DNA of 17,036 nucleotides from Candidatus Omnitrophota bacterium (GTDB taxonomy: Bacteria; Omnitrophota; Gorgyraeia; Duberdicusellales; 4484-171): contig JAIPGM010000014.1 of assembly GCA_021735655.1 (NCBI GenBank), positions 1 to 17,036 on the forward strand, read 5' to 3'. Positions 141 through 9,400 of the stretch are shown here, piece by piece. The number at the start of each line of letters is the position of its first letter. The stretch's first letter is position 1. A program made the translations under genes and the position numbers. The notes under the pieces are model-generated. The model did no database searches and was not told the DNA's origin. It saw only the letters and a program-made list of their open reading frames with translations.

Positions 141-752
141 ATGAAACATTTTTATTTTTTCGGGTTGGCGGTTTTGTTGTTTTTAGGTCTGGCTTGCGAT
201 CGAGGTCCACAAGAGGTAGTTATCGACAGTTTTGAGAGTGAAATAAATCCAAAAACTGTTGATTTTGGTGCAAGTGAGAATTCGTCTATAAGCGTTGATT
301 TAGCCAAGGATATAAAAGTTTGTGGTGAGCAGTCGTTAAAAATGACTTATGATTTAAGGCCTTCGGGGTATATGTGGGTTGCTCGAGGTTATGGCTTAGA
401 CGTTGAAGGGGCTGCTCTTTGGGAAGTTAAACCTAAAGATATCAAATGGAAGAGATATAAATCAATTAGTGTTGCGATATACGGACGGAACTCGGGAGGC
501 GTTTTAGCTTTTGACTTAAAGGATAGTGGTGGAGAAATGTGGCGGACTATTATTGATGATGATTTTGAGGGTTGGAAAGGTGTAGTTTGTCCTTTCAAGA
601 ATTTCTTTCCTCGTAAAGATTGGCAACCGGACACTGCCAAGAAGAATGATAAATTAGACTTTCCGATTATGAGTTTTCAATTCGAGCCACGGCTTCCTGG
701 CATCGGCGTCTATTATTTTGACTGCATAAAGGCTGTGAAAGTAGAAAAATAA
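141..752 (+). CDS. Putative secreted lipoprotein with a beta-sandwich (CBM / galactose-binding-like) appearance. Function unknown.
   Basis: Hydrophobic N-terminal signal followed by a Cys (…FLGLAC|DRG), which is lipobox-like. AGGAG RBS 6 nt upstream. The mature part is rich in Gly, aromatic and acidic residues (GYMWVARGYG, DDDFEGWKG), reminiscent of carbohydrate-binding or CIA30-type beta-sandwich domains. The stop TAA is immediately followed by the ATG of the next gene. Confidence 0.55.
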   Translation: MKHFYFFGLAVLLFLGLACDRGPQEVVIDSFESEINPKTVDFGASENSSISVDLAKDIKVCGEQSLKMTYDLRPSGYMWVARGYGLDVEGAALWEVKPKDIKWKRYKSISVAIYGRNSGGVLAFDLKDSGGEMWRTIIDDDFEGWKGVVCPFKNFFPRKDWQPDTAKKNDKLDFPIMSFQFEPRLPGIGVYYFDCIKAVKVEK

Positions 753-1778
753 ATGTCCGGTAAAGTCATTGATTTATCAAAGCTAAGCGAAGAGGAATTA
801 CTTAAGGTTAAAATTCGTGACCTGGGCCTCTCAATAGAAGGCACTTGGTTAGAAGATTGTATTCAGCAGTTATATGGAGAACTTGATTCTCAAGGAATCA
901 AGTTCAAACCACCTTGCTACTTAGCCGATGAATGGCTTGCTCCTGATGAAGAGCCAATAATTGGAATACCTTTTTTTTTAGCCCATCCGACGCTTATTAA
1001 GCTAGAAAGGAAAATGATGCTTGATGTCGAAGGTGGTACAAAAGCCTGGTGTATGAAGTTACTTCGTCATGAAACTGGCCATGCTTTAAATTATGCCTAC
1101 AAGCTTTATCGTCGGAAAAACTGGCAAAAGATATTTGGAAAATTTTCCAAGGAGTACGCTGATACTTATCGTTTTCGTCCTTATAGCAAGAATTTCGTTC
1201 GGCATTTGGAAAATCATTATGCTCAATATCATCCTGATGAGGATTTTTCGGAAACTTTTGCTGTCTGGCTTACGCCGGGGCTTAATTGGCAACAACAGTA
1301 TAAGGGTTGGCGGGTGATAAGTAAACTTCATTATGTCGATAAGATTATTAATGAAGTAAAAGATAAAGAGCCATTGGTGGAAAAGGGTAGTCGTTATTGG
1401 GAAGCTAGACGCATGCGCACGACTTTGAAGAGTTTTTATAAGAAAAAACGTCGTTCCTACGCAGAGGATTTTCCTGATTTTCACGATTCTAACTTAAGAC
1501 GAATATTTACCTTACCGGAACCGGAAAGCAAACCTTTGTCTTCGGCGGCAGCAATTTTAAAAAAGTACCGCAAAGAAATATTGAATAATGTAGCTCGTTG
1601 GACCGGAGAAAGAAAATATATTATTGGAGACCTTATTGATACTTTGATTCAGCGATCTAGGGAACTTAAATTGGTGGTTGTTGATCAGGAATCGCTGGCG
1701 GTACTTAAAATTTCTACCTATATTACGACTTTGGTGATGAACTATCTTTATACTGGAGGCTTTAGTAAGGAAAGATGA
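753..1778 (+). CDS. HExxH zincin-like putative metallopeptidase; family uncertain.
   Basis: Canonical HExxH (H-E-T-G-H, aa 106-110, nt 1068-1082) inside a helix-like context (LLRHETGHALNYAYKL). A possible third ligand (Glu/His) sits downstream (HYAQYHPDEDFSETFAVW). Start abuts the upstream stop (TAA-ATG), and the 3' end overlaps the next gene by 4 nt (ATGA). Confidence 0.6.
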   Translation: MSGKVIDLSKLSEEELLKVKIRDLGLSIEGTWLEDCIQQLYGELDSQGIKFKPPCYLADEWLAPDEEPIIGIPFFLAHPTLIKLERKMMLDVEGGTKAWCMKLLRHETGHALNYAYKLYRRKNWQKIFGKFSKEYADTYRFRPYSKNFVRHLENHYAQYHPDEDFSETFAVWLTPGLNWQQQYKGWRVISKLHYVDKIINEVKDKEPLVEKGSRYWEARRMRTTLKSFYKKKRRSYAEDFPDFHDSNLRRIFTLPEPESKPLSSAAAILKKYRKEILNNVARWTGERKYIIGDLIDTLIQRSRELKLVVVDQESLAVLKISTYITTLVMNYLYTGGFSKER

Positions 1779-2794
1779 AAAAACTAAGGGTTCTTTTGCT
1801 TTTTGATAGTCCAGTTTCGAGAATGCGCGGTTATGACTTTAAAGAGGAATTTAAGGATGTTGATTGGGATACCGAGCGCAGCACTTATGAAGTTTTAACT
1901 AAAGCGGGACACGAGGTAAGGATCTTAGGTCTTTATAATAATATTAATATACTTCTTGAAGAGATTGCCGAAATCAAACCGGACATAATTTTCAATATGG
2001 CTGAAGTGTTTAATCAAAAGTCATACCTAGATAAGAATGTTGCCGGAGTTCTTGAGATGCTAGATATTCCTTATACCGGGGCATCTTTAACTACTTTGGC
2101 TATTTGCGGCGATAAAGCTTTATGTAAAAAGATACTTAGTTTTCATAGAATTAAAGTTCCCCAGTTTTATACTTTCTATCGTCACCGGCGGATCTGGCTT
2201 CCTAAGAGACTTCGTTTACCATTAATTGTTAAACCGCTCAGTGAAGAAGCTTCTCGAGGGATTTCTCAAGCTTCAATCGTCGACAATGAGGAGGCGATGA
2301 TTGAGAGAGTTAAGTTTATTCATGATAGTATGAAGAATGACGCCATAGTTGAAGAATACATCGAAGGTCGGGAGCTTTATGTTAGTGCAATTGGTGATAA
2401 GCGAATTAAGATTTTACCTATGCGTGAGATGAAGTTTGGTAGCCTCGGTGAAGATGAGCCGCGGATCGCTACCTATAAGGCAAAGTGGGATTATAAATAT
2501 CGAAAAAAGTGGGAAATTAAAAATATGTTTGCCGGAAGGCTACCTAATGGCTCAACCGAGAAGATAAATGAAGTTTGCAAGCGTGCCTTTAGAGCTTTAA
2601 ATTTGGAGTGTTACGCCCGTTTTGACATTCGTTTAACAAACGATTCAAAAATATATATTCTTGAAGTTAATGCTAACCCTTCTTTAGACCCTGATGATGA
2701 ATTGGCCCAGTCAGCAGAAAAGGGTGGATTAACTTACGATAAGCTTATTCAAAAAATATTGATATTGGGGCTTAAGAGAGGTGGAAATAATTAA
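1775..2794 (+). CDS. ATP-grasp enzyme of the D-Ala-D-Ala ligase / RimK-like superfamily (amidoligase).
   Basis: Collinear with the Ddl fold throughout. RVLLLFD at the N-terminus; DIPYTGASLTTLAICGDKALCKKIL in the central domain; PLIVKPLSEEASRGIS (P-loop-like); EEYIEGRELYVSAIGD; an omega-loop-like KAKWDYKY; and the C-terminal Mg/ATP motif ARFDIRLTNDSKIYILEVNANPSL. It lacks the HG..GEDG block I expect in genuine Ddl. Confidence 0.85.
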   Translation: MKKLRVLLLFDSPVSRMRGYDFKEEFKDVDWDTERSTYEVLTKAGHEVRILGLYNNINILLEEIAEIKPDIIFNMAEVFNQKSYLDKNVAGVLEMLDIPYTGASLTTLAICGDKALCKKILSFHRIKVPQFYTFYRHRRIWLPKRLRLPLIVKPLSEEASRGISQASIVDNEEAMIERVKFIHDSMKNDAIVEEYIEGRELYVSAIGDKRIKILPMREMKFGSLGEDEPRIATYKAKWDYKYRKKWEIKNMFAGRLPNGSTEKINEVCKRAFRALNLECYARFDIRLTNDSKIYILEVNANPSLDPDDELAQSAEKGGLTYDKLIQKILILGLKRGGNN

Positions 2795-2796
2795 TT

Positions 2797-3054
2797 ATGG
2801 GTGCAGAGATTTTTGTAGCTCGTTGTTATGATGTTGGAGGAGTAGGTTTGGTAATCAATGGCTGGGTCCAGTCAGGTGAGATTAGGGAAGGATCAGTCGG
2901 TAGAACCTATAAAGGAAAAAGATTTACTTTGGTAAAGATTGAAAAAGAAGGTAAGCAAATTCCTAAGGCTGTTGAGAAAGATAAGATTAATCTTTTTGTT
3001 AAACATGTTAACCGCACTGAGGTGAAGCCGGGTGAGACTGTTTATTTTGAGTAG
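2797..3054 (+). CDS. Small (85 aa) stand-alone beta-barrel protein resembling EF-Tu domain 2 (translation-protein beta-barrel). It ends in -VYFE.
   Basis: The whole length matches EF-Tu D2: VGGVGLVINGWVQSGEIREGSVG aligns with GTVVTGRVERGIIKVGEEV, and the C-terminal KINLFVKHVNRTEVKPGETV aligns with [21 protein letters not shown]. Starts 2 nt after the ATP-grasp stop. Family placement is by eye, so confidence is moderate. Confidence 0.5.
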   Translation: MGAEIFVARCYDVGGVGLVINGWVQSGEIREGSVGRTYKGKRFTLVKIEKEGKQIPKAVEKDKINLFVKHVNRTEVKPGETVYFE

Positions 3055-3063
3055 GTTTTAGTC

Positions 3064-3633
3064 TTGCAGAGATCAACTAAGATGAAAGATTTACTTAATC
3101 CTAGTCAGAGAAGTTATCTTCTTTCTTTAGTTAGAGATACTATTCAACACTATCTAAGGACAAAAGAACCCTTAGAGCCCAAGACGGAAGACTCTTTGCT
3201 AAAAGATGTGCGCGGCGCTTTTGTTACTTTGCACCAAGGAGGTAGGCTAAGGGGTTGCATTGGTAGTATAGTTGCAACTAAGCCTCTTTATTTAGAGATA
3301 AGGGATATGGCTATTGCCGCAAGTACCCAAGATTCGAGATTTTCTCCGGTGAGTGAAGGAGAGCTGGCCGACATAAGAATAGAGATATCAGTTTTGTCGC
3401 CGTTTAAAAAAATAGTTAATTCTGACGAAATCATAGTTGGCAAGCATGGAGTTTTAGTGAAGCAGGGGTATAAAAGTGGAGTTTATCTACCACAAGTAGC
3501 TAAAGAGACCGGATGGGGTAAGGAAGAATTTATGAATAGTCTTTGTAGGGATAAGGCTGGCATCTCAGTTGATTCTTGGAAGAGGGGTGAGTGCGAAATC
3601 TATATTTTTAGTGCAGAAGTATTCGGAGAGTAG
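3064..3633 (+). CDS. AMMECR1-domain protein.
   Basis: Signature GAFVTLHQGGRLRGCIGS and downstream GKHGVLV / GVYLPQV blocks typical of AMMECR1. The annotated start is TTG at 3064; an in-frame ATG at 3082 (MKDLL…) is an alternative start. Confidence 0.8.
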   Translation: MQRSTKMKDLLNPSQRSYLLSLVRDTIQHYLRTKEPLEPKTEDSLLKDVRGAFVTLHQGGRLRGCIGSIVATKPLYLEIRDMAIAASTQDSRFSPVSEGELADIRIEISVLSPFKKIVNSDEIIVGKHGVLVKQGYKSGVYLPQVAKETGWGKEEFMNSLCRDKAGISVDSWKRGECEIYIFSAEVFGE

Positions 3634-3639
3634 TTAAAA

Positions 3640-4395
3640 ATGTCTAAAACTGTAAAAAATTTAATTATTGCCAATGTTTCAGTTTTTCTGCTTAGCTCTA
3701 TTTGGCAAGAGTTTCCGATCGGGCTGTTAGCTATGGTTCCGAGATTGGTCTTTTCAAAGTTAATGATTTGGCAGCTAGTTACCTATATGTTTGTGCATCT
3801 TGATTTGTGGCATTTGGTGATGAATATGCTGATGCTTTGGTTTTTTGGACCAGCAATCGAGGCAGCTTGGGGCCAGAAGCGATTTTTAATTTATTATTTT
3901 TTTACTGGTATCGGCGCAGCTTTATGCAGTGTTATTTTTTCCTTTAATTCACCGATAATCGGAGCCTCGGGTGCAATATTTGGAATATTGGTTGCTTACG
4001 CCATGCTTTATCCTGATAATATGATTTTGTTTTTTTTCTTTGTTCCGATGAAGATGAAACATGCTGTTTTTGTCTTAGCCGGAATAAATCTTTTGGGGGC
4101 AATTTCAGCTTCTGGCAGTGGCATTGCTTACATAGCTCATTTAGGCGGTGGTCTTTTTGGTTACCTTTACTTAAAAAACGAAACTTTACGCCATCGCCTT
4201 CTATCTTTAGACTTTGAGAAGATCAAATCATGGTTTAATAAGCCATCGGCAAAACCGACAAAGTCTACTAAACCCAATAAGCCTAAAACCTTTGATGAAC
4301 GGGTTGATGAGATTCTTGATAAGATATCCAAGAAAGGAATGGCTAGCCTTACTAAGGAGGAGATAGATATCCTTGATCGACGTAGTCGTTCTTAA
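3640..4395 (+). CDS. Rhomboid-family intramembrane serine protease with a C-terminal Pro/Lys-rich linker and a SHOCT-like tail.
   Basis: Multiple TM helices. Catalytic GxSG (GASGAIFGIL) and a His in AHLGGGLFG sit in the last TM helices. The tail KPSAKPTKSTKPNKPK followed by ERVDEILDKISKKGMASLTKEEIDILD fits the L-x-L-x3-G-x-[IL]-T-x-EE-[FI] SHOCT pattern. Confidence 0.85.
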   Translation: MSKTVKNLIIANVSVFLLSSIWQEFPIGLLAMVPRLVFSKLMIWQLVTYMFVHLDLWHLVMNMLMLWFFGPAIEAAWGQKRFLIYYFFTGIGAALCSVIFSFNSPIIGASGAIFGILVAYAMLYPDNMILFFFFVPMKMKHAVFVLAGINLLGAISASGSGIAYIAHLGGGLFGYLYLKNETLRHRLLSLDFEKIKSWFNKPSAKPTKSTKPNKPKTFDERVDEILDKISKKGMASLTKEEIDILDRRSRS

Positions 4396-4437: not shown

Positions 4438-4466
4438 TTGACAAACCAAGATAAATAGGCTATACT
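4438..4466 (+). promoter_or_regulatory. Near-consensus sigma70 promoter: TTGACA (4438-4443), 17 nt spacer, TATACT (4461-4466).
   Basis: Read directly from the sequence. It lies in the only sizeable intergenic gap (4396-4512), about 47 nt upstream of the MarR ATG. An AGGAGG Shine-Dalgarno is at 4501-4506. Confidence 0.6.
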
Positions 4467-4974: not shown

Positions 4975-6439
4975 AAGTAAAAACATTAGTTTATTTTTAA
5001 TTCTAGTGGCAGGATTTTTTTTAACTTTTAAAGGTTTCACTGAAGACCTATTGCCTTTGGAATTGTCTTTAGAAGAGGTAACCGAGATTGCTTTGGAAAA
5101 TTCTTTGGATATTCAGATTGCTAAGTTTGATACCTATATTAGTAGAACCTCTAAAGATGAGGCTGAATCAATATTTGATACTATTTTTAGCGCTGAAGCT
5201 AGCTATAATCGAAATCGAAAAGAAACGGCCAGTTCTTTGGCCGGAACCGATACTCGAGAGACTATTTTTTCATTGGGTCTTGAGAAAAAACTACCTACCG
5301 GAACCACGCTTGCTCTAGATGCAATCAACACCAAGACTAAAACTAATAGTTCTTTTACTACCTTAAATCCTTATACTGAAGCTGGGCTTGAATTTTCAGT
5401 AACTCAGGAGTTAGGTAGGAATTTCTTTGGCTTAGCTGATCGGGCTAAGATTAAAATTACTAAAATCGATATTGAAAATTCTGAGTTTGTGTCTTTGGAT
5501 GATATTGAACAGTTTCTCTATGCTGTTCAGCGTTCCTATTGGAATTTAGCACTTCGCGAAGAAGAGCTTTTAATCGCTAAAGATATGCTGTCGGAAGCAG
5601 AAAAACTTTATGAAATTTACAAGGAAAAGAAAGAGCTAGGCTTGGTCGAGGAGAGTGAATTTTTAGCAATTGAGGCTTTACTTAAGGCCCGTCAAAGTAG
5701 CATTAATGTAGCTCAATTAGCTCGGGAAACGGCAAAGAATGATTTATTATTTTTAATTAACCGTGGTGATTTTCAGCAAAATCTTATTCCTCGGGATAGT
5801 CTAGATATCGAGGTTTTTGAGACAGATTTATATCAAGCTTTGAATCGGGCAGTTGATTCGCGTCGTGACTATAAGCGGATTAAAAATGAGTTAGAGAAAA
5901 ACAAGATTGATTTGGTGGTTAAAAAGAATGCCCTTTGGCCGCAAATAGATTTTGAGGCTACTTTTACTCGCAATAATATTGATACCGGACGCAGTCAGGC
6001 TTGGGGGGATATTTTTAGCGATGGCGGCGAAGATGTTTTTTTTAAAGTAAGTTTTGAGGTACCGCTTGAAAAAAGAGCGGCTCGTTCTCAAGTTCGCAAG
6101 GCCGACTTAGAAAAATCTCGGTTTTTACTCAAGTTTAAGCGAATTGAACGTCTATTGTTACAGGAAATCAACGATAAGGTTAATCAGGTAAATACGATGC
6201 AGAATCAAGTCAAACTATTTAAGCAGACGGTTAAAATTCATCAGCGCAAACTTAAGAGTCAAATTGAGCGTTTAAGTTTGGGGCGCTCTGATTCAGATAC
6301 GCTTATTCGTTACGAGGAAGACTTATTAAAAGCACGTTTATCTTTAGCGGAGTATTTATTTAATTATCGTACTAGTTTGATCGAGCTGGATTTAAAACAG
6401 AACATTTTACTAGATAAGTATTGGCAGGAGCCACTTTAG
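4958..6439 (+). CDS. TolC-family outer-membrane efflux protein (outer membrane factor, OMF).
   Basis: N-terminal signal peptide, then the classic OMF opening (LSLEEVTEIALENSLDIQIAKFD…). Two-fold internal repeat of beta-strand and coiled-coil segments. 493 aa. Confidence 0.85.
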   Translation: MKKLSKSKNISLFLILVAGFFLTFKGFTEDLLPLELSLEEVTEIALENSLDIQIAKFDTYISRTSKDEAESIFDTIFSAEASYNRNRKETASSLAGTDTRETIFSLGLEKKLPTGTTLALDAINTKTKTNSSFTTLNPYTEAGLEFSVTQELGRNFFGLADRAKIKITKIDIENSEFVSLDDIEQFLYAVQRSYWNLALREEELLIAKDMLSEAEKLYEIYKEKKELGLVEESEFLAIEALLKARQSSINVAQLARETAKNDLLFLINRGDFQQNLIPRDSLDIEVFETDLYQALNRAVDSRRDYKRIKNELEKNKIDLVVKKNALWPQIDFEATFTRNNIDTGRSQAWGDIFSDGGEDVFFKVSFEVPLEKRAARSQVRKADLEKSRFLLKFKRIERLLLQEINDKVNQVNTMQNQVKLFKQTVKIHQRKLKSQIERLSLGRSDSDTLIRYEEDLLKARLSLAEYLFNYRTSLIELDLKQNILLDKYWQEPL

Positions 6440-6451
6440 GAGAGCAAAGCG

Positions 6452-9400
6452 ATGAGTATTGTTGAATTTTCAGTAAAGCGTTCACTTTTAGTAAACCTTA
6501 TTTCAGTTTTTATCTTAGTCGCTGGGTTTTTGTCGGTTTTTGTGTTTAAGATTAGAAGAGAGGCTTTTCCTGAAGTTTCTTATGACATTGTCATTGTTAG
6601 TACGGTTTATCCGGGGGCAGCCCCCGAGGAGGTAGAAAAGCTAGTTACCATACCGATTGAAAAGGAGTTAAAGGGAGTAGACGGAATAGAGAAGATGAAG
6701 TCTACCTCCCTAGAGAACTCTTCAAACATTTCAATCGAGATAAGCCAAGATGTAAAAAACAAGCGCAAGGTTATTACCGATATTCAAAAGGCGGTTGATC
6801 GAGTAAGAGATTTACCGGCCGGAGTAGAGGATGACCCAGTAGTAAGTGAGGTTACTTCTGGAGAGTTTCCGGTAGTTCAGGTAGCCTTAAGTGGTGATAT
6901 GCCTGAGAAAGAGCTTCAAGAGTATGCTGAAAATCTAGAAGATATCCTAGAAGATATTCCTGGTGTTTCAAAGATTTCTCGGATTGGTTATCGAGATCGA
7001 GAAGTCTGGGTTGAGGTTGATCCACAAAAGCTAAGCTCTTTTCATTTAAGCCTTGAAGAGGTAATGGAAGCTCTGGCTAGGAAAAACCGAAGTATTCCCG
7101 GAGGAAAAATCAGAGGAGTTCAAGAGTTCAGCATTCGGACAACCGGTGAATTTTATACTAAAGAAGAAATTGAAGATGTGGTTATCCGGGCTAATGAGAC
7201 TGGGAATTGGCTAAGAGTAAAAGATGTGGCTGAAGTAAAGTTTTCTTTTGAGGATGAAAACACAATTAATAAAAGTTTTGGTACTCGGTCGATAGACCTT
7301 ACTGTAATCAAGCGGGCTAGCGGTGACGCGATTGAAATAGTTGAAAAAGTCAAGCTTAAGACTGAAAAATTTTTAACTCAGACAAATGATTCTCGTTTGG
7401 AAACTTCTTACATTAATGACATATCTTTTTATATTAAACGTCGGCTAGGTACGCTTAAAAATAACGGAATAGTCGGTATTGTTTTAGTTTGTTTTGTTTT
7501 GATGATATTTTTGCAATTTCGGATTGCTTTGATAACTGCTATTGGACTTCCGATTGCTTTTTGTGCAACTTTGGCGGTAATGAGCTTTGTTGGTTTGAGT
7601 ATAAACCTAGTTACCATGTTTGGTTTGATTGTGGTTTTGGGTATGTTAGTTGATGATGGCATTATTGTTTCTGAGAATTGTTCACGCTATCTAGAAGAGG
7701 GCCATTCACCTTATCAGGCGGCTATTTTAGGAACCCAGGAAGTAATAAAACCAGTTACTACTACAATAATTACGACCATTGCTGCTTTTAGTCCGCTTCT
7801 TTTTATGGGGGGGATGATGGGGAAGTTTATCTGGGGGATACCTCTGGTAGTTATTATTGCTCTTTGTGCTTCTTTATTTGAAGCCTTAGTTATTTTGCCT
7901 TCGCATTTTGCCGATTTTATTCGTCGGGATAAAAATTTTAAATCGCGTAAAGAACTCCCTTGGTTTAAGAAATTGGTCGTTGTCTATACTCGATTAGTGA
8001 CTAAGGCTTTAAATCGGCGTTGGTGGGTATTGGGAGGATTATTTTTAGTTTTAATTTTAACTGTTGGTTTAGTTATGCACATGCCAAAAATTCTTTTTGC
8101 TTCTGAAGAAGGAATAGAAGAGTTTACTGTCCGGGCCGAAGCCCCAGTCGGAACTAATCTTTATTCCACTGATAAGTTAATTAAACCGATAGAGGAAGAA
8201 GTCGCTAAGATGCCTAAAAATCAGGTCGAAGCCTACACTACTCAAGTTGGTTCAATCGGTGATAGTTGGCATTTTGATCCTTATGGTAAGAGCGGTAGCC
8301 ATGTAGTTCAGGTGACAGTTCACTTAACGCCTTATAAGCAGCGCAAAAGAAAGGTTAGTCAGATCATCGAAGACCTACGAACTAAAATTGGTGATGTTGA
8401 GGGGTTTGATCGGGTTTACTTTGAGAAACCTCAGGCTGGACCTCCGGTCGGTGCACCGGTTGCGGTTGAAATTCGCGGCGAGAGCTTTGAAGTTTTAAAC
8501 AAAATCGCTAATCAGATAAATGAATTTTTAAAAACCATTCCCGGTATTTCCGATATAGTATCTGATTATGAGGTTGGCAGAGGAGAAATTCGGGTTATTG
8601 TTGATGAAGAAAAAGCTGCCCGGACCTATTTGTCGGTCGGTGAAGTGGCTTCAAGTATTCGCAATGCTTTTCGCGGCGGGGTGGCTACTTCAATTAAGCC
8701 GGTTAAGGCTGAAGAAGAGATTGATGTTTTAGTGAGATTTCCCGATGACTATCGTACTAAGCGAGAATCCTTTGAAAAAATATTAGTTCCTAATAAGTTT
8801 GGTAATTTAATCCCTTTAGCTAAGATAGCTAGATTTGAGGATGGTGTATCGGTAGCCAGGGTTCAGCATCTCGACGGAAAAAGAGTGATATCGGTCAAAG
8901 CTAACGTTGATAACCAGAACATTACTTCTAATGAAGCTAATAAGCTGATTAAGGATAAATTTAAGGATGTTTCAATTAATTTTCCCGGATATAGTATACA
9001 GTTTGGCGGAGAGCAAAGGGAAAATGTCCGTTCAATGAAAGATTTCGCTAATGCTTTTATTCTGGCCTTGTTTTTAATTTTTTTAATTTTAGCCGCTAAC
9101 TTTAATTCATTGGTTCAGCCGTTAATCGTTATGATGGCGATTCCTTTTGGTTTTATCGGAGTCATCTGGGCTTTTTTCTTCCATGGTTTACCGATCGGTT
9201 TTTTTATGTTTATGGGTGCAGTAGGTTTAACTGGAATAGTAGTTAATGATTCTATAGTTTTGGTTGAGTTTGTTAATAATTTAAGAAGAAAAGGGGTCGA
9301 TCGAAGACATTCATTAATTCAAGCCGGTCAGTTACGCTTGCGGCCGGTTTTACTTACTACGATTACTACTGCTCTTGGTTTGACCCCGACAGCCTATGGT

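Follow-up and report, generated by a model that had tools for sequence, protein, structure and literature searches.

An 85-residue gene for a lone domain-2 barrel

The 17,036-nucleotide stretch of DNA analysed here (the window) comprises positions 1 to 17,036 of contig JAIPGM010000014.1 from a Candidatus Omnitrophota assembly (GCA_021735655.1). It carries a small open reading frame (ORF) at 2797–3054, the subject of this study, whose 85-residue product is termed D2. The gene follows directly on that of a Ddl-like ATP-grasp ligase (an amidoligase in the initial annotation), with its start codon 2 nt downstream of the ligase stop codon. The plus-strand genes between 141 and 4395 are tightly packed with gaps of 0–9 nt or short overlaps in the order CBM_11-like lipoprotein, HExxH peptidase-like protein, ATP-grasp, D2, AMMECR1 and rhomboid (Table 1), and terminator-like sites were absent from this strand before position 4147. 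No tRNA or transfer-messenger RNA (tmRNA) genes were found in the window. An identical 85-residue protein is deposited in NCBI (K9L86_08385) from a Ca. Omnitrophica metagenome-assembled genome, where it is annotated as a hypothetical protein.

Table 1. Location of the D2 gene, its sequence elements and the adjacent genes in the window
Feature	Position	Strand	Basis or remark
CBM_11-like lipoprotein	141..752	+	Pfam CBM_11, 7.6e-16
Cytosolic HExxH zinc-peptidase-like protein (Peptidase_Mx-like)	753..1778	+	PF15887, 1.2e-5, slightly below cut-off
Ddl-like ATP-grasp ligase	1775..2794	+	Pfam Dala_Dala_lig_C, 4e-25; directly upstream of D2
Shine-Dalgarno-like motif AGAGGTGG	2777..2784	+	12 nt upstream of the D2 ATG, within the 3' end of the ATP-grasp gene
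D2 gene, 85-aa stand-alone EF-1alpha/EF-Tu domain-2-like beta-barrel protein	2797..3054	+	ORF, fold, homology
Codon of Y11	2827..2829	+	Equivalent of EF-Tu F218, aminoacyl pocket aromatic; aromatic in 27/38
Codon of E49	2941..2943	+	Equivalent of EF-Tu E259, which holds A76; Glu in 32/38, Asp in 3/38
Stand-alone AMMECR1 (AmmeMemoRadiSam system protein A)	3064..3633	+	Pfam AMMECR1, 1.3e-55; TIGR04335, 5.6e-52; directly downstream of D2

The length and boundaries of D2 are stable. Fourteen close homologues and ~35 remoter ones are proteins of 82–87 residues with identical N- and C-terminal boundaries, and homologues at 36–100% identity have 84–85 residues with conserved start and stop positions. 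When the gene was compared with its nearest relative, the proportion of non-synonymous differences (pN) was 0.10 and that of synonymous differences (pS) was 0.69. Thus, constant length, shared ends and a pN far below pS demonstrate that D2 is a real gene under purifying selection. The non-synonymous rate (dN) for D2 was 0.38–0.55 compared to 0.18–0.26 for the neighbouring genes of the ATP-grasp protein and the peptidase across the same pairs of genomes, an approximately two-fold faster change that applies to distant pairs, as the rates in the two closest pairs were similar to those of the ATP-grasp and peptidase genes.

The AlphaFold2 model of D2 has a predicted local distance difference test (pLDDT) score of 93.6 and consists of an all-beta barrel with strands spanning residues 3–84. 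A Foldseek search of the PDB with this model produced 155 matches at E≤0.001, and the best 50 of these were all translation-factor domain-2 barrels or the archaeal protein Pbp11. These 50 matches were chiefly to eEF1A, its archaeal counterpart aEF1A and EF-Tu, and also to SelB, aIF5B and eRF3, with template modelling scores relative to the query (TMq) of 0.79–0.91 and root-mean-square deviations of 1.3–2.5. Comparison with domain 2 of eEF1A, aEF1A, EF-Tu and SelB gave TMq values of 0.83–0.91, and the Pbp11 entries 4PGO, 1XE1 and 7ANU gave values of 0.81–0.86 with a score relative to the target (TMt) of ~0.8. Neither an OB nor an SH3 fold was found; the model superposes on domain 2.

Sequence profiles led to the same family. 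A profile of 14 D2 homologues matched residues 251–325 of eEF1A2 among PDB sequences at E=2.4e-6, followed by archaeal EF-1alpha, SelB, eRF3 and bacterial EF-Tu, and D2 is nearer to the EF-1alpha type than to bacterial EF-Tu for which the match was at E=0.036. The window D2 sequence alone scored 14.0 bits (E=0.07) against Pfam GTP_EFTU_D2 (PF03144), which is under the gathering threshold of 30.3, and PF03144 matches at E≤0.1 were obtained with 19 of 28 family members, the best at E=1.2e-9. The NCBIfam models for EF-1alpha (2.8e-5), SelB (1.3e-4) and Pbp11 (4e-4) also matched the window protein, all under their cut-offs. D2 therefore belongs by profile and by structure to the EF-Tu domain-2 superfamily, though the single sequence lies under the Pfam threshold. 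The EF-Tu-domain-2-like beta-barrel proposed in the initial annotation is borne out by the profile match, the confidence of the model and its structural superposition, and the protein is indeed free-standing as the 85 residues comprise the barrel only. The ORF is bounded by the ATP-grasp stop codon and its own, with neither a G domain nor domain 3, and so does not encode a translational GTPase. Overall, D2 is a cytosolic single beta-barrel without tails that is homologous to domain 2 of EF-1alpha, EF-Tu and SelB; it is mildly basic, as is the family with a median isoelectric point of 8.8.

To assess the breadth of the family, 1.84 billion representative proteins were searched exhaustively with the profile, and 98 matches were returned. 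Approximately 35 of these are proteins of 82–87 residues for which the named records are from Omnitrophota only. Further matches at E values of 1e-7 to 1e-4 are proteins of 100–145 residues from DPANN (Diapherotrites) archaea, and a few are GTPase-less proteins with multiple D2 domains. The long matches are fragments of eEF1A or SelB, multi-D2 proteins, or spurious glycine-rich matches, e.g., to fasciclin. Two or three EF-Tu domain-2 repeats and no other Pfam domain were observed in the GTPase-less proteins P0032 (655 residues), P0047 (190 residues) and P0070 (324 residues). The DPANN proteins resemble the window family in being GTPase-less single barrels, but are archaeal and longer, and bear an MGLFD.LFGKK motif that is conserved at the N-terminus and leads into a variable linker (P0040–P0107); this motif may form a helix that is amphipathic or serves in membrane targeting. 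Several contigs of species-representative metagenome-assembled genomes are labelled as Methanosarcinales archaeon or uncultured Planctomycetia (L015, L016, L017, L019–L023 and L025), yet display Omnitrophota gene order and ATP-grasp genes that are 71–76% identical to that of the window, and are probably mis-binned or mislabelled. D2 is thus an undescribed orphan family, restricted to Omnitrophota in named records, although the kind of protein to which it belongs, the stand-alone domain-2 barrel, is already known. The earlier remark that domain 2 is not normally encoded as a free-standing protein was too strong: metagenomes hold many GTPase-less D2 proteins, and Pbp11 is a characterised stand-alone domain 2 (PMC9540759).

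A candidate acceptor-end pocket

The residues that line the EF-Tu domain-2 pocket were compared in a MAFFT alignment of 38 D2 family members, residues 207–296 of E. coli EF-Tu and a fragment of eEF1A. The numbering of the EF-Tu sequence was checked against E259 and R288 of PMC9540759. Section 2.2 of that paper identifies E259 (E271 in T. aquaticus) as the glutamate that holds A76 of aminoacyl-tRNA (PMC9540759). E49 is the counterpart of this residue in D2, and Y11 is in the position of the pocket aromatic. The hydrophobic pocket residues I220 and V226 of EF-Tu are matched by V13 and V19, which are hydrophobic in the D2 family, and R279 of EF-Tu, to which no role is assigned, is matched by K69, a position with Lys or Arg in 35 of the 38 members. 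The conserved basic residues K63, K69 and K77 are at or beside pocket-lining positions. The EF-G encoded beside one D2 homologue lacks a Glu equivalent to E259; thus, E49 is a mark of the EF-Tu/EF-1alpha/SelB type of pocket and is not a general domain-2 trait. Domain 2 of these factors (PF03144) therefore shares with D2 the fold, detectable homology, the A76-pocket Glu and the pocket aromatic. Unlike EF-Tu, D2 lacks the G domain and domain 3 and hence a GTP switch, and the inter-domain contacts that complete the aminoacyl-tRNA site of EF-Tu (such as His66 and the 5'-phosphate site) are absent.

Pbp11 (Q9UZY3/PF0907; PDB 7ANU, 1XE1 and 4PGO; NCBIfam NF041207) is, like D2, a small, GTPase-less, monomeric single barrel in which the Glu equivalent to E259 of EF-Tu is retained. 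In the published report on this Thermococcales protein, Pbp11 shifts tRNA in electrophoretic mobility shift assays, loses tRNA binding when the N-terminal tail is removed and also binds the PAN-proteasome (PMC9540759). Pbp11 differs from the window protein in that it is archaeal, has a mass of ~11 kDa and is reported to depend on its tail for tRNA binding, whereas D2 is bacterial and tail-less; moreover, D2 has a proline at the R288 position. The window protein scored 20.3 bits (E=4e-4) against the NF041207 equivalog model, for which the cut-off is 100, and with this score, no N-terminal tail and a bacterial origin it is not a member of that equivalog. The two proteins are homologous at the level of the superfamily, and by analogy D2 may resemble Pbp11 in its mode of action. 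PAN is not known from Omnitrophota. A further precedent for a lone domain-2 barrel is the isolated C2 domain of initiation factor 2 (IF2).

The gene neighbourhoods of D2 in other Omnitrophota are varied. In one lineage (L118 5377–7187, also L119), the 84-residue homologue P0035 lies between smpB and the tmRNA gene, which is on the opposite strand and is followed by a tRNA-Ser gene. The tmRNA gene (minus strand 6501–6849) was detected with an Rfam score of 173.7 bits, and the tag peptide predicted by ARAGORN, ANPFATLPA, is unusual. In a second lineage (L030 3457–6255), homologue P0033 is directly downstream of canonical fusA, which encodes EF-G (TIGR00484, 1041 bits), and is followed by a shikimate kinase gene; as called, the EF-G ORF has an N-terminal extension of ~120 residues. 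D2 also occurs after genes for IscS, NadA, MnmA and LarE (L027), between MnmA, LarE and CBM11 genes and a PEMT-like gene (L034), between RNase III and CBM11 genes and a TrpB-like gene (L011), and ahead of a YqeY-domain gene (L035). Of these gene orders, smpB-D2-ssrA and fusA-D2 offer the best leads for experimental work.

The reading favoured tentatively here, at somewhat less than an even chance, is that D2 is a free barrel predicted by analogy to bind acceptor ends and to act in translation or in the metabolism of tRNA. A single-stranded 3' acceptor end would be bound in the canonical domain-2 pocket (Y11, E49, K50/G52, K63 and K69), the bound RNA would be tRNA-like (tRNA, aminoacyl-tRNA or tmRNA), and D2 would be a small trans-acting accessory of one or other of these processes. 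The proposal is favoured by two precedents, Pbp11 and the isolated C2 domain of IF2, by the conservation of pocket residues and by the smpB/ssrA, fusA and mnmA neighbours. The fallback in the initial annotation, an aminoacyl- or peptidyl-binding accessory, was close to it.

A number of observations weigh against acceptor-end binding. Several pocket residues of EF-Tu are replaced in D2. The acidic pair E215 and D216, which contacts the aminoacyl group, is not kept and corresponds to A8 and R9. Two further aminoacyl contacts are not retained either: N273 corresponds to K63 (Lys or Arg in 28 of 38 members) and R262 to G52 (Gly in 27 of 38). R288, which contacts the 5' end of the tRNA, is replaced by P78, next to which K77 is Lys or Arg in 25 of 38 members. 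With these replacements, D2 may have a ligand other than an aminoacyl ester. The first strand begins at residue 3 and leaves no N-terminal tail, unlike the tail-dependent Pbp11, and the net charge of the family is only about +2 to +4 with a few neutral members. Few of the neighbours are related to translation, those with mnmA are not independent since they belong to one syntenic block, and the larE, CBM_11, TrpB-like and PEMT genes are unconnected with translation. In addition, some functional tie of D2 to the ATP-grasp protein could exist within the clade of the window, as the adjacency of the two genes survives changes in the downstream gene.

A different role within translation is unlikely, although it accommodates part of the same evidence. 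D2 might mimic domain 2 of a translational GTPase on the ribosome. Docked at the shoulder of the 30S subunit (h5/S12 region), or on a factor by which EF-Tu domain 2 is recognised, it would modulate or compete with EF-Tu or EF-G as a regulator instead of binding tRNA. Domain 2 is the element common to all translational GTPases that contacts the 30S subunit, and the positions of D2 beside fusA and smpB/ssrA in other lineages agree with such mimicry, as does the lack of the tail that Pbp11 is reported to need for tRNA binding, which fits docking on protein or rRNA. However, the best-conserved non-glycine residues, E49 and Y11, are those of the A76/aminoacyl pocket, a feature specific to EF-Tu, EF1A and SelB, and are not general 30S contacts.

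The neighbouring peptidase/ATP-grasp module

The two genes immediately upstream of D2 overlap by 4 nt and encode the zinc-peptidase-like and ATP-grasp proteins. The latter scored under the cut-off of the NCBIfam Ddl models (134 versus 243), and its alignment to solved Ddl structures extends over residues ~54–336 only, usually 86–335. As they never align to solved D-Ala-D-Ala ligases, the N-terminal ~50 residues at least are not Ddl-like. When metagenome contigs were scanned with the aligned ATP-grasp orthologues, more than 529 matches were obtained, from which the best 80 loci (L037–L116; 45–75% identity) were analysed. The peptidase gene is directly upstream of the ATP-grasp gene in 64 of the 66 loci with sufficient upstream sequence. 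D2 is present in five of the 80 loci only, all at ATP-grasp identities of at least 65%. Another 61 loci have 400 nt or more of downstream sequence, and none of these yielded a D2 gene. A conserved small ORF that replaces D2 downstream of the ATP-grasp gene was also absent from this set, where the commonest genes in this position encode a DEDD exonuclease (12 loci) and LexA (four loci). Thus, the peptidase/ATP-grasp pair is a separate, autonomous and widespread two-gene module. A literature search on the Peptidase_Mx/ATP-grasp pair found nothing, and PADLOC gave no defence-system matches for D2, the ATP-grasp protein, the peptidase or the CBM11 protein. In one of the five loci (L039), D2 is inverted (5020–5277, minus strand) and convergent with the ATP-grasp gene, and consequently the two cannot be co-transcribed. 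D2 was considered as an obligate partner of the ATP-grasp protein and rejected in view of the 61 loci without D2 and its presence in five close relatives only.

Within Omnitrophota, the ATP-grasp-D2 order persists when the downstream gene changes among Memo-AMMECR1, AMMECR1 alone, YqeY and DUF3352. The initial annotation had recommended that ATP-grasp genes in other genomes be examined for this mini-gene, and D2 adjoins an ATP-grasp gene in ~15 Omnitrophota genomes, but is missing from all 61 of the remoter ligase loci with sufficient downstream sequence. D2 behind the ATP-grasp gene in the window is a lineage-specific gene order with no sign of a substrate-enzyme relation.

It is improbable, to about the same degree as the ribosome-docking role, that D2 in the clade of the window is a non-covalent accessory of the peptidase/ATP-grasp module, such as a ligand-presenting or specificity factor, that was recruited from a translation-related ancestor. 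Retention of the gene order across D2 identities of 36–79% and three different downstream genes speaks for this possibility, and the 2-nt spacing suggests co-translation. Nevertheless, this evidence is all synteny from one phylum and the module works without D2 elsewhere. Three loci (L042, L044 and L045) with Omnitrophota-like ATP-grasp genes (62–66% identity) have no D2 downstream. The approximately doubled rate of evolution of D2 would also be unusual for a tightly co-adapted subunit.

The initial annotation had proposed D2 as a candidate substrate or carrier for the ligase, based on its location after the ATP-grasp gene and on its C-terminus, -ETVYFE. The ATP-grasp enzyme would extend or load the terminal Glu in the style of RimK/S6, LysX/LysW or TTL/tubulin, with D2 as an acceptor or amino-group carrier that the zinc peptidase would untag. 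In favour of such a scheme, a small protein together with a ligase and a peptidase would make a plausible tagging and untagging triad, the stop codon of the ligase gene and the start codon of D2 are 2 nt apart in an operon-like cluster that has no terminator-like site, and the adjacency recurs in ~15 distinct Omnitrophota genomes, even when the downstream gene has changed. In addition, 20 of 33 family members end in an acidic residue. The known acceptors of ATP-grasp ligases have a conserved acidic C-terminus, a flexible tail and co-occurrence with the ligase. S6/RimK, LysW/LysX and tubulin/TTL resemble the present case in the pairing of a small protein gene with an ATP-grasp gene, and the window copy of D2 does end in Glu, but none of these three attributes holds for D2. 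The C-terminal residues are not conserved among orthologues: the final position in 33 representatives is D in 12, E in eight, G in five, absent in five, and K, N and V in one each, so that the Glu seen in the window is not a conserved trait of the family. The conserved end is Phe84, after which the next residue varies or is absent, and the copies linked to ATP-grasp genes terminate in YFE, YFD, FFD, HF, YF, SF, FFS, FF, VFK or YFN, with at least seven of them stopping at Phe. Nor is the end of the protein a flexible tail, as the last beta-strand comprises residues 81–84 of 85 and the final five-residue block has a mean pLDDT of 94.

Moreover, ligase and D2 occur apart in both directions. The module is without D2, and without any conserved small ORF in its place, in all 61 remoter loci with sufficient downstream sequence, and at least five lineages of Omnitrophota carry D2 at a locus that has no such module (L011, L027, L030, L034 and L118). 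The inverted D2 copy in L039 and the absence of any ATP-grasp-D2 fusion among the 98 profile matches point the same way. A covalent acceptor role, thus, is very doubtful, and the practical outcome is a correction in which the story of a ligase plus its acceptor is unsupported. A precursor of a ribosomally synthesised and post-translationally modified peptide of the graspetide type was also considered and rejected, as such precursors have an unstructured leader and a core with conserved Thr/Ser and Asp/Glu ring-forming motifs and D2 is predicted confidently as a globular barrel homologous to EF-1alpha domain 2.

Downstream genes and implications for Omnitrophota

The AMMECR1 gene that follows D2 in the window encodes a stand-alone protein of 189 residues and has the rhomboid gene directly next to it. 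In most relatives (L002–L025 and L032 were compared), the corresponding gene encodes a Memo-AMMECR1 fusion of 485–500 residues and is followed by genes for DsbD_2, a spermine-synthase-like protein of ~700 residues and a radical SAM protein, a block that is lost in the window and in L020. An association of D2 with the AMMECR1/Memo/radical-SAM (AmmeMemoRadiSam) system is highly improbable. Memo-AMMECR1 or AMMECR1 lies directly after D2 in the window and in ~15 related genomes, but elsewhere the downstream gene is TrpB-like (L011), DUF3352 (L029), PEMT (L034), YqeY (L035), shikimate kinase (L030) or tmRNA (L118), and the window retains D2 although Memo and the radical SAM gene have disappeared from it. 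A literature search on AmmeMemoRadiSam returned incidental mentions only, one in each of six papers, in which no function was given. Finally, the EF-1alpha, GTPase or SelB tags that some pipelines attach to homologues might suggest that the ORF is what remains of a decaying EF-1alpha- or SelB-like gene, or an artefact of gene calling. Such an origin is already effectively refuted by the fixed length with conserved start and stop, the pN far below pS, the Shine-Dalgarno-like motif of its own and the complete, confidently modelled domain.

Two other features flank this set of genes. At the upstream side, the CBM_11-like gene directly precedes D2 in lineages without the peptidase/ATP-grasp pair at this locus (L011/L012 and L034). 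At the downstream side, the sequence that best matches a sigma-70-like promoter within the first 4.6 kb (4438–4466; 11 of 12 positions) is just upstream of a MarR gene that heads a block of MarR, TolC-like, RND and ABC-F genes.

The EF-1alpha, SelB or GTPase labels on 85-residue proteins represent pipeline mislabelling of a stand-alone domain. Should binding of acceptor ends be confirmed, D2 would be the first GTPase-less, EF-Tu-like binder of tRNA ends in bacteria, the only characterised case being the archaeal Pbp11, and would provide a very small and easily expressed handle on a lone domain-2 pocket. Omnitrophota are ultra-small bacteria that are often dependent on a host. On a wider and distinctly more speculative view, which is judged unlikely as a whole, these organisms might carry a minimal, trans-acting EF-Tu pocket that captures the acceptor ends of tRNA, aminoacyl-tRNA or tmRNA, or competes with EF-Tu for them, in an undescribed level of translation control or quality control. 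Such a pocket would have been invented in parallel in DPANN archaea and Thermococcales, and in the clade of the window might possibly be coupled to the peptidase/ATP-grasp pair.

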